A stretch of DNA of 12,760 nt, from the UHGV virus genome UHGV-0172607; one strand, 5' to 3'. Below are positions 9,468 to 10,287 of the stretch, one piece after another. The notes below the pieces were generated by a model that was given only the letters and a program-made list of their open reading frames with translations, ran no database searches and was not told the origin of the DNA. The DNA is from a virus. Both the position numbers and the translations under genes were made by a program. The stretch's first letter is position 1. Every line of letters begins with the position of its first letter.

Positions 9468-10063
9468 CCCTTTCAGGCATCGCCTCTGTTCTGCTGAAAG
9501 CCGGGCCGGGGCTGATTCGTTCCGTCGGGCGCTGGTTTGGTGGCAGCACATCTGCCGCCGCTGACTCGGTGGCCGGTATGGTGGAAAGCGTCCGGGAAAG
9601 CCTGCCGGTGGCTGAACAGCAACGCATTCTGGAACAAAAACTGGTGATGCTGTCACCGGAGCAACTGATGCAGCTGGAAACCCTGAAAGTTCAGCTGCAA
9701 CAGCTGGAGGTGGAGCGGCAGAAGCTGGTGCTGGCTGACCAGCAGGCCGCACACCACGAACAGCAGGAAACCATCCGCAATGGTGACAACGCCACGGACA
9801 GCTATGTGCGCCAGACACGCCCGCTGCTGGCCCGCCTTTCCTGTTACAGCAGTCTGGCCTATGTGCTGTTGCTCTCCTGCGGCCAGATTGCCGGAGCCAT
9901 TGCCGGTGCCAGAGGTATCACGCTGCATATGCCATCACCGGACTGGGATATCACGCTGATGTTGCTTACCCCGGCGCTGGGCTATCTCGGTGTAAGAACC
10001 CTTGACGGCTTTGCCCGTTACAGCAAATCAAGCCGTCACAAAATGTCTGCGGGGCCGAAATGA
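9455..10063 (+). CDS. Holin-like protein with N-terminal coiled coil and C-terminal TM segments (3TM-holin-like, about 202 aa)
   Basis: GTG at 9455 preceded by GGAGG with 6-nt spacing. Gln/Leu-rich coiled coil (EQQRILEQKLVMLSPEQLMQLETLKVQLQQLEVERQKL), then TM segments LARLSCYSSLAYVLLLSCGQIAGAIAGA and WDITLMLLTPALGYLGV. The 9305 start in the track overlaps the previous gene and has no RBS. Confidence 0.5.
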   Translation: MDPLTLSGIASVLLKAGPGLIRSVGRWFGGSTSAAADSVAGMVESVRESLPVAEQQRILEQKLVMLSPEQLMQLETLKVQLQQLEVERQKLVLADQQAAHHEQQETIRNGDNATDSYVRQTRPLLARLSCYSSLAYVLLLSCGQIAGAIAGARGITLHMPSPDWDITLMLLTPALGYLGVRTLDGFARYSKSSRHKMSAGPK

Positions 10064-10287
10064 CCGACGAAATCGACCGCATCAGTGAAGTGGTTCTGAA
10101 CGAGCGTCAGAGCGTCGTTAAAGCCTGGCAGACACGGACAAAAGAAGCGCCCCACAGCCGGGGCTTCTGCAATGACTGCGGGAACGTTATTCCGGCACAG
10201 CGCCTTGCGGCGCTGCCGGATGTGGTGACCTGTATTGACTGTCAGCAGATGCGGGAACGCAGGAGGAAATCGTGTCCTGGGAAATGA
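10060..10287 (+). CDS. TraR/DksA-family C4 zinc-finger protein (75 aa)
   Basis: C-x2-C-x17-C-x2-C motif (CNDCGNVIPAQRLAALPDVVTCIDC) typical of the TraR/DksA C4 zinc finger; start overlaps the upstream stop (ATGA). Confidence 0.7.
   Translation: MTDEIDRISEVVLNERQSVVKAWQTRTKEAPHSRGFCNDCGNVIPAQRLAALPDVVTCIDCQQMRERRRKSCPGK

Follow-up and report, generated by a model that had tools for sequence, protein, structure and literature searches.

A TraR-family zinc-finger gene in the putative late operon of a Mu-like Escherichia coli prophage

The virus genome UHGV-0172607, a stretch of 12,760 nucleotides that was analyzed as a whole and is called here the window, corresponds to one end, the left, of a Mu-like (transposable) Escherichia coli prophage. 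This report deals with a small gene at positions 10060-10287 of its + strand. As judged by profile searches, the 75-amino acid product is a member of the TraR family of zinc-finger proteins, orthologous neither to conjugal TraR nor to DksA. We consider it fairly probable, on the comparisons presented below, that the protein would bind the secondary channel of host RNA polymerase (RNAP) independently of guanosine tetraphosphate (ppGpp), and that it would inhibit rRNA and ribosomal-protein promoters in the late phase of phage development. RNAP binding and promoter effects are attributed to it because the five phage TraR homologues that have been assayed all bound RNAP and inhibited the rrnB P1 promoter (PMC9239242).

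The gene is an intact open reading frame (ORF) that runs from an ATG at 10060 to a TGA at 10287 (75 codons, + strand), exactly where an initial annotation of the window had placed it. Its product is MTDEIDRISEVVLNERQSVVKAWQTRTKEAPHSRGFCNDCGNVIPAQRLAALPDVVTCIDCQQMRERRRKSCPGK. The four cysteines of the protein (C37, C40, C58 and C61), read from the sequence, have the C-x2-C-x17-C-x2-C spacing that the annotation had also described. The gene and its elements can be summarized as follows:

10060-10287, + strand: TraR-family gene, 75 amino acids, with an N-terminal helix, a C4 zinc knot and a C-terminal helix (ORF, hidden Markov models and AlphaFold2 model)
10060-10063, + strand: ATGA in which the start codon overlaps the stop of the upstream gene, so that translation of the two could be coupled (sequence and related loci)
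10066-10083, + strand: codons of D3-E-I-D6-R-I8, the counterpart of the DxxDxA tip motif of TraR, with A8 replaced by I (alignment)
10168-10242, + strand: zinc-finger codons from C37 to C61 (CNDC-x17-CIDC), including P45, R48 and A46/L49/A50 (sequence)

From six-frame translations of shuffled sequence, 0.06 occurrences of a C-x2-C-x15-19-C-x2-C motif are expected in each window (at least one in 16 of 300 shuffles). Comparison with 12 distinct E. coli relatives gave ratios of nonsynonymous to synonymous substitution rates (dN/dS) between 0.14 and 0.85, about 0.3 in most pairs and below 1 in 12/12 comparisons. Hence, the reading frame is under purifying selection. Another CxxC...CxxC match found in the window, at about 3028-3165 on the minus strand, falls in an antisense ORF of 45 amino acids inside the transposase gene and is taken as chance. 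Within the zinc-finger gene itself, a terminator-like hairpin of the minus strand (10164-10149) was likewise treated as chance, as 10 such matches were found against 6.6 expected. A search of the whole window against Rfam detected no RNA family.

Family membership was established with profile hidden Markov models (HMMs). The protein scored 42.3 bits against Pfam PF01258 (cut-off 24.9, E 7e-11) and 61.4 bits against NCBIfam TIGR02419, only just above the cut-off of 59.7; the title of the latter model is 'phage/conjugal plasmid C-4 type zinc finger protein, TraR family'. An HMM match to the DksA/TraR C4 family, which the initial annotation had proposed as a check, was thus found with both models. 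PHROG 54, a 'DksA-like zinc-finger protein', matched across residues 1-73 (E 3e-20), and the closest sequence matches in the PDB were TraR in complex with RNA polymerase (5W1S, E 2.6e-6; 6N57) and DksA. The equivalog models were missed by wide margins, both that of conjugal TraR (NF010268, 30.8 bits versus a cut-off of 108) and those of DksA (TIGR02420, 28.7 bits versus 115.5; NF008045, 29.5 versus 289), which is the reason why the protein is not regarded as an orthologue of either.

The functional anatomy of TraR was defined by Gopalkrishnan et al. 2022 (PMC9239242) and Chen et al. 2019 (PMC6970531). According to these studies, an N-terminal helix (N, residues 2-27) brings a DxxDxA motif to the active site of RNAP; a globular zinc domain (G, residues 28-57) contacts the β′ rim helices through R48 and β′Si3 through E46, R49 and K50; and a C-terminal helix (C, residues 58-73) touches β lobe-Si1. 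The window protein aligns with F TraR (73 amino acids) over 73 residues with zero gaps, and D3, D6, G41, N42, I44, P45, R48, P53, Q62 and E66 are kept. Both aspartates of the DxxDxA motif (D3 and D6) are therefore present in the alignment, and the distance from D6 to C37 is 31 residues in both proteins. Residues Q62, E66, R67 and K70 of the C-terminal helix also align with F TraR. The relevance of the aspartates is indicated by phage lambda Orf73, whose activity is lowered by the substitutions D3N and D6N (PMC9239242).

An AlphaFold2 model, built on an alignment of HMMER relatives, has helices at residues 3-28, 46-51 and 59-71 and a zinc region that is mostly non-helical. A single N-terminal helix (3-28) is predicted, without the coiled coil found in DksA, and the predicted layout agrees with the N, G and C elements of TraR. 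When the model was compared with the PDB using Foldseek, ranks 1 to 10 were all occupied by chains of the DksA/TraR family (probability 0.95-1.0), including RNAP-bound TraR. The top match was the DksA chain of the RNAP/rrnB P1 complex 7KHI, and 73 columns aligned to 6N57_M. The TraR/DksA-type identity that had been suggested in the initial annotation is thus borne out by HMM scores above the cut-offs, an ungapped alignment with F TraR, the retention of D3, D6, P45, R48 and the C-terminal helix, and the fold matches.

An exhaustive HMMER search retrieved 462 relatives at E ≤0.001; a word-indexed protein search reached only relatives at least 66% identical, and HMMER was needed for the more distant ones. 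Conservation was counted in 112 TraR-sized homologues and, as a separate set, in 55 distinct proteins of the Mu-like branch. All 112 homologues have R48 and the four cysteines, and D3, D6, I44, P53, Q62 and E66 are conserved in at least 90%. An R-L pair at positions 48-49, as in DksA, is found in 66 of the 112. Within the Mu-like branch, R48 is present in 55/55 proteins and both I44 and P53 are essentially invariant, while D3 is often K or R. Position 49 is occupied by L or I in 55/55, never by arginine, and E is found at position 46 once only.

The timing of expression was considered using the gene order of the window, obtained from the ORF list and profile searches. The features that delimit the transcription unit are:

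7698-8147, + strand: Mor-family activator gene (PF08765, E 2.4e-29), whose product is presumed to activate the operon in which the TraR gene lies
8153-8180, + strand: intrinsic-terminator-like hairpin and T-run just after mor (8-bp stem, 5 G-C pairs, TTTTTTT tail)
8233-8829, + strand: first gene of the operon, encoding a soluble GH108 endolysin with a PG_binding_3 domain (PF05838, PF09374)
11289-11891, + strand: Mu gp27-type small terminase gene (PF11985, E 4.7e-54), followed by the large terminase gene

The strong hairpin at 8153-8180 most likely marks the end of the early operon, so that the TraR gene would fall in the late unit that follows it. All gene junctions between 8233 and beyond 11891 are either overlaps or gaps of 2 bases at most. 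The + strand has a single other terminator-like match (8987-9002, 6-bp stem), which falls inside a coding region, and a sigma-70-like promoter was not found on that strand over the same stretch of genes. The operon extends into packaging genes, as indicated by the small terminase gene. Location of the TraR gene within a lysis/late block, as claimed in the initial annotation, is thus supported by the terminator that follows mor and by the run of tightly joined genes. Late transcription of the Mu lys operon is the model used here for the operon under study. With that knowledge and the gene layout of the window, we infer that the TraR gene is most likely carried on a Mor-dependent late transcript together with lysis and packaging genes.

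The regulatory region offers an additional observation. Only one activator of the Mor/C family is found between gemA and the endolysin gene, while Mu has mor and C. The mor gene overlaps the stop codon of gemA, and a 50-nt gap precedes the endolysin gene. Along with the terminator-like hairpin, these traits suggest a transcription cascade of two tiers rather than three.

The TraR gene is flanked by two genes that recur in related phages:

9455-10063, + strand: upstream gene encoding a 202-amino acid protein (PHROG 1544, E 1e-59; holin match below threshold)
10272-10577, + strand: downstream DUF2730 gene, of the family of the Mu gp25 'releasin' (PF10805, full length)

The spread of this arrangement was examined with a search anchored on DUF2730 and not on the zinc finger, and the best 80 IMG/VR loci, whose DUF2730 proteins are 56-99% identical, were inspected. 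An ORF with the CxxC-x17-CxxC motif ends at the DUF2730 start or overlaps it in 80/80 of these loci, one of which is cut by the contig end. The zinc-finger ORF is intact in all 79 complete loci (45-99% identity), and its start overlaps the upstream stop by 4 nt in 67 of them and by 1 or 8 nt in the other 12. The translational coupling with the upstream gene that the initial annotation had proposed has a real counterpart in the window, as the two ORFs share the ATGA at 10060-10063, a layout that permits coupling. On the other side, the stop of the zinc-finger gene overlaps the downstream gene, which starts either at GTG 10272, preceded by AGGAGG at five bases, or at ATG 10284.

The block made of a protein of about 200 amino acids, TraR and DUF2730 is also present in Vibrio phage martha 12B12, in Nahant Vibrio phages and in Klebsiella phage Kp4866-3. 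Among six distant representatives (37-46% identity), five are found in a Mu-type block, with Mor or GemA upstream and Gp27 or DUF1804, terminase and Portal_Mu downstream, and one in a conjugative element. A distant Mu-like element, on a contig from Logan SRR22395766 (L094, 2488-4038), has the TraR-DUF2730 pair two small ORFs past Mor, with no endolysin gene between; hence, the pair appears to travel with the packaging module and not with the endolysin. Neither the placement of such a gene nor its annotation is new. In 2008, a gene of the dksA/traR zinc-finger type was described in the Burkholderia transposable phage KS10, located between the genes of the endolysin and the small terminase (PMC2628397). 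The E. coli orthologue is named 'TraR/DksA C4-type zinc finger protein' in RefSeq (WP_042856712.1), and a cluster of 154 sequences at 97% identity bears the same TraR/DksA name. In this sense, the gene is an ordinary one.

Comparison with known systems helps to delimit what the window protein shares with each of them. F TraR (73 amino acids; PDB 5W1S, 6N57/6N58) resembles it in length class, C4 spacing and helix/zinc-knot/helix layout; the two proteins are 29% identical, and F TraR is encoded in the tra operon whereas the window gene belongs to the putative late operon of a phage. Lambda Orf73 and P2 Orf82 are also phage-encoded and TraR-sized, and have two N-terminal aspartates, R48 and a C4 finger, as the window protein does. 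Both are 29-30% identical to it and keep R49, in contrast with L49 in the window protein. Moreover, they are early genes (Orf73 in the exo-xis region, Orf82 in the Pe operon near replication genes), while the window gene is found after mor and a terminator. DksA has a zinc finger of the same family, and its R125-L126 corresponds to R48-L49. DksA is, however, a protein of 151 amino acids with a coiled coil, and the window protein, with 75, lacks the DksA N-terminal region and is too short for a coiled coil.

The nearest parallels are KS10 gp7, martha 12B12 gp28, the proteins of the Nahant Vibrio phages and WP_042856712.1, which belong to the same family and occupy the same slot between lysis genes and the small terminase gene. 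The TraR gene is directly upstream of DUF2730 in the Vibrio phages and in the E. coli prophage, as it is in the window. KS10 differs in that a 102-amino acid gene precedes the TraR gene instead of following it. Identity to the window protein is 35-49% for the phage examples (KS10 and Vibrio) and 96-97% for the E. coli prophage proteins.

If the protein acts like F TraR, it would bind the host RNA polymerase and not DNA. Its N-terminal helix would enter the secondary channel, placing D3 and D6 beside the active site; the zinc knot would sit on the β′ rim helices by means of R48 and P45, and the C-terminal helix would contact the β lobe-Si1 insertion. TraR-type proteins act without ppGpp (PMC9239242). 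Such ppGpp-free binding would alter the conformation of the polymerase and shut down promoters with short-lived open complexes, among them those of rRNA and ribosomal proteins. If made, as proposed, from the Mor-dependent late operon alongside lysis and DNA-packaging proteins, the protein would in this way free polymerase and nucleotides otherwise spent on ribosome synthesis for the expression of late phage genes.

A number of observations weigh against this proposal and can be listed together. Identity to the assayed proteins is 29-30%, just under the range found among those homologues (32-49%), and none of the five belongs to the Mu-like branch. Alanine 8 of the DxxDxA motif is replaced by isoleucine in this E. 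coli clade; most other Mu-like relatives carry A8, and P2 Orf82, which also has I8, still bound RNAP and inhibited rrnB P1, with a half-maximal inhibitory concentration 5-fold higher (PMC9239242). P43 of F TraR is V in the window protein, and the P43A substitution weakens RNAP binding by F TraR (PMC6970531). Nine proteins of the Mu-like branch have just 7-8 residues after the last cysteine. The confidence of the AlphaFold2 model is moderate (pLDDT, its per-residue score, 71; pTM, its global score, 0.40), and TM-scores to TraR, a measure of structural similarity, are about 0.5. The late timing rests on gene layout. Lastly, the Si3-contact triad of F TraR (E46/R49/K50) is replaced by A46/L49/A50. 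When E46A, R49A and K50A were introduced in F TraR, activation of amino-acid promoters was approximately halved and inhibition barely changed (PMC6970531). A good inhibitor with weak activation can be predicted from these β′Si3-contact residues; in other words, the window protein probably inhibits well and activates poorly.

A further point on the same side comes from Mu itself. Mu gp24, a 'hypothetical' protein of 64 amino acids (11524-11718 of the Mu record), is encoded directly upstream of gp25, and has a C-x2-C-x17-C-x2-C motif equally far from the N-terminus. D3/D6, R48 and the C-terminal helix are all missing from gp24; hence, RNAP binding would not be indispensable at this locus, as a protein in the same slot has lost those elements. 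Mu gp24 has no match to Pfam PF01258, and its alignment with TraR is weak (hhalign E 1.9e-4, probability 48%). It is possibly, on sequence grounds, a degenerate TraR relative at best. Two papers, one on Mu lysis (PMC9239132) and one on late transcription in Mu (PMC12867686), mention neither gp24 nor zinc, TraR or DksA.

These observations make it necessary to consider other readings. One is that the zinc-finger protein serves mainly as a partner or timer of DUF2730, of the 202-amino acid protein or of both, in lysis or at the start of packaging, with RNAP binding reduced or lost. The strict linkage described above (80/80 loci on the DUF2730 side, 79/79 complete loci on the upstream side) speaks in its favor, as do the persistence of the TraR-DUF2730 pair in the contig that has no endolysin gene between mor and the pair, and the fact that Mu gp24 retains position and C4 spacing without the RNAP-contact motifs. 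A precedent also exists: VP882 TraR acts in a complex with QisA, which is encoded by the neighboring gene (preprint, bioRxiv 10.64898/2026.07.27.740977). However, growth arrest in VP882 still needed the RNAP-binding DxxDxA motif (bioRxiv 10.64898/2026.07.27.740977), and the residues that are fully or nearly invariant in the branch (D6, I44, R48 and P53), together with the 31-residue helix between D6 and C37, are those that serve the secondary channel and the rim helices. Close synteny and overlapping genes are, besides, common in phage late operons, and do not imply physical interaction. Given that conservation falls on the residues that contact the polymerase, and that arrest in VP882 requires DxxDxA, we regard a role confined mainly to the neighbors as unlikely.

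It is also conceivable that RNAP is indeed bound, and that the selected role is another: to aid the Mor-dependent late promoters, or to clear or destabilize polymerases that collide with the numerous forks of Mu-type replicative transposition, in a DksA-like avoidance of conflicts. Shut-off of host rRNA would then not be its purpose. The gene is grouped with late genes, unlike the early lambda Orf73 and P2 Orf82, and some homologues may regulate promoters of their own phage, a possibility allowed in PMC9239242. The activation-linked Si3-contact residues are, however, missing, contrary to what a co-activator would demand, and we find this alternative improbable. As for collisions with replication forks, DksA is known to act in transcription-replication conflicts. 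A chance ORF, or a decaying remnant without function, might be invoked given the small size of the product (75 amino acids) and the few database relatives of the gene that are truncated or frameshifted. This view is rejected by the conservation data and scarcely deserves credit: it is at odds with the HMM E-values, with dN/dS values below 1 in every comparison, with intact ORFs in all complete loci, and with conservation across Escherichia, Klebsiella-type and Vibrio phages.

Inhibition of ribosomal promoters by a TraR-type protein is therefore the interpretation that we favor, and what it adds to current knowledge is little: the family, its mechanism and its occurrence in phages are established, and the protein is correctly named in RefSeq. 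A late, DUF2730-linked branch without the Si3 triad is not a surprise. The aspect of interest is that Mu-like phages consistently put their TraR gene in the late lysis/packaging operon, beside a gene of the releasin family, and that the residues linked to activation have been replaced. The TraR homologues studied previously all come either from regions that are early or regulatory, or from a genomic context that is not known. Specifically, the three assayed homologues with known context are early or regulatory: lambda exo-xis, P2 Pe operon and VP882 PR operon. The genomic context of Gp34 from Xenorhabdus bovienii was unknown to its authors (PMC9239242); we considered it as a possible member of the Mu-like branch and rejected the idea, as its sequence is P2-like and ends in KHYRSE. 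A TraR protein of Mu-like phages thus bears on two questions: whether shut-off of host ribosome synthesis in the late phase helps a transposable phage, and whether natural TraR variants separate inhibition from activation. A bolder speculation, which we rate as rather unlikely, is that Mu-like phages possess a TraR branch of their own, late and frame-locked to the ~200-amino acid membrane protein and the DUF2730 protein, unlike any TraR studied to date, that would act as a Si3-less, inhibition-only polymerase brake coupled to the switch to lysis and packaging. Were that so, the coupling might be physical, as for QisA and TraR in VP882, and Mu gp24 would be a degenerate descendant.

The genes around the TraR gene deserve some comment. 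The initial annotation had placed it between a holin-like and a spanin-like gene; the order stands, the spanin label does not, and the holin match is below threshold. The downstream protein matches PF10805 (DUF2730) over its full length (E 1.7e-30, 105.6 bits versus a cut-off of 24.9, profile positions 1-102 of 102), and for this reason a spanin identity was rejected. It has a hydrophobic segment at residues 10-30, an N-terminal membrane helix of the kind usual in this family, followed by a coiled-coil-like cytoplasmic part; a cytoplasmic C-domain is predicted for the DUF2730 family (Chamblee et al., PMC9239132). The protein is 27% identical to Mu gp25, the 'releasin' that is required to free the membrane-tethered endolysin of Mu (Chamblee et al. 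2022, PMC9239132). Many DUF2730 proteins accompany soluble endolysins, and their role there is unexplained (PMC9239132). Hydropathy analysis detected no N-terminal membrane, signal-anchor-release (SAR) or signal segment in the endolysin encoded at 8233-8829. With such a GH108 enzyme, the locus is a case of soluble endolysin plus DUF2730. Between 8233 and 11172, the ORF list offered no obvious pair of spanins and no obvious lipoprotein, embedded or adjacent, although no dedicated lipobox search was made there.

The upstream 202-amino acid protein has a hydrophobic N-terminus, a long coiled-coil-like middle and one or more C-terminal membrane segments, with one clear hydrophobic segment by hydropathy. 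Its match to PF11351 (GTA_holin_3TM) reached 20.4 bits, below the cut-off of 24.8 (E 7.8e-4), and the neighbor in one distant relative (L096) has an equally weak match to the same family. The protein is 40% identical to gp29 of Vibrio phage martha. Three ORFs lie between the endolysin and TraR genes:

8831-9082: ORF of 83 amino acids
9057-9467: membrane ORF of 136 amino acids
9455-10063: ORF of 202 amino acids

The 136-amino acid ORF, which has several hydrophobic segments, appears from its sequence to be a holin candidate at least as good as the 202-amino acid protein. PHROG 2121, a profile of 284 positions, matches the 83-amino acid ORF with positions 3-85 and the 202-amino acid ORF with positions 91-273, in one frame. 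In Vibrio phage martha, homologues of these two ORFs (32% and 40% identical, respectively) are adjacent genes. In E. coli and Klebsiella phages, a multi-pass membrane ORF of 136-179 amino acids is found between both ORFs, in another frame and overlapping both. This membrane ORF, a holin candidate, looks like a gene inserted between two neighbors that are fused in some phages. The alternative that the 83- and 202-amino acid ORFs are halves of a gene split by insertion was rejected, as they are separate adjacent genes in Vibrio phage martha.

The remainder of the window agrees with its description as the left end of a Mu-like prophage. Megablast detected 37 complete E. coli genomes with 93-98% identity over 80-99% of the window length. 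Similarity to prophage in other E. coli genomes starts at ~54-56, and the first ~55 bases are for that reason considered host flank; in strain KFu019, the host gene on the left flank is ygbI. When the late block was compared with a phage collection, megablast yielded only a 347-bp match to Yersinia phages, in the endolysin gene, and no close sequenced phage. Other genes in the window are:

396-986, minus strand: repressor-like gene, followed by a ner-like gene
1318-3375: transposase A
3414-4373: B ATPase
5227-5751: gam
7096-7701: gene of the gp16/GemA family
10577-10870: winged-helix gene of the VpaChn25_0724 family, followed by two small ORFs

These two small ORFs, one of 99 amino acids (10873-11172) and an overlapping one of 52 (11162-11320), resemble each other at the N-terminus (37% identity over 38 residues), and each of them matches PHROG 8988 at its beginning. 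The pair gives the impression of a partial tandem duplication, located immediately before the gene of the small terminase.

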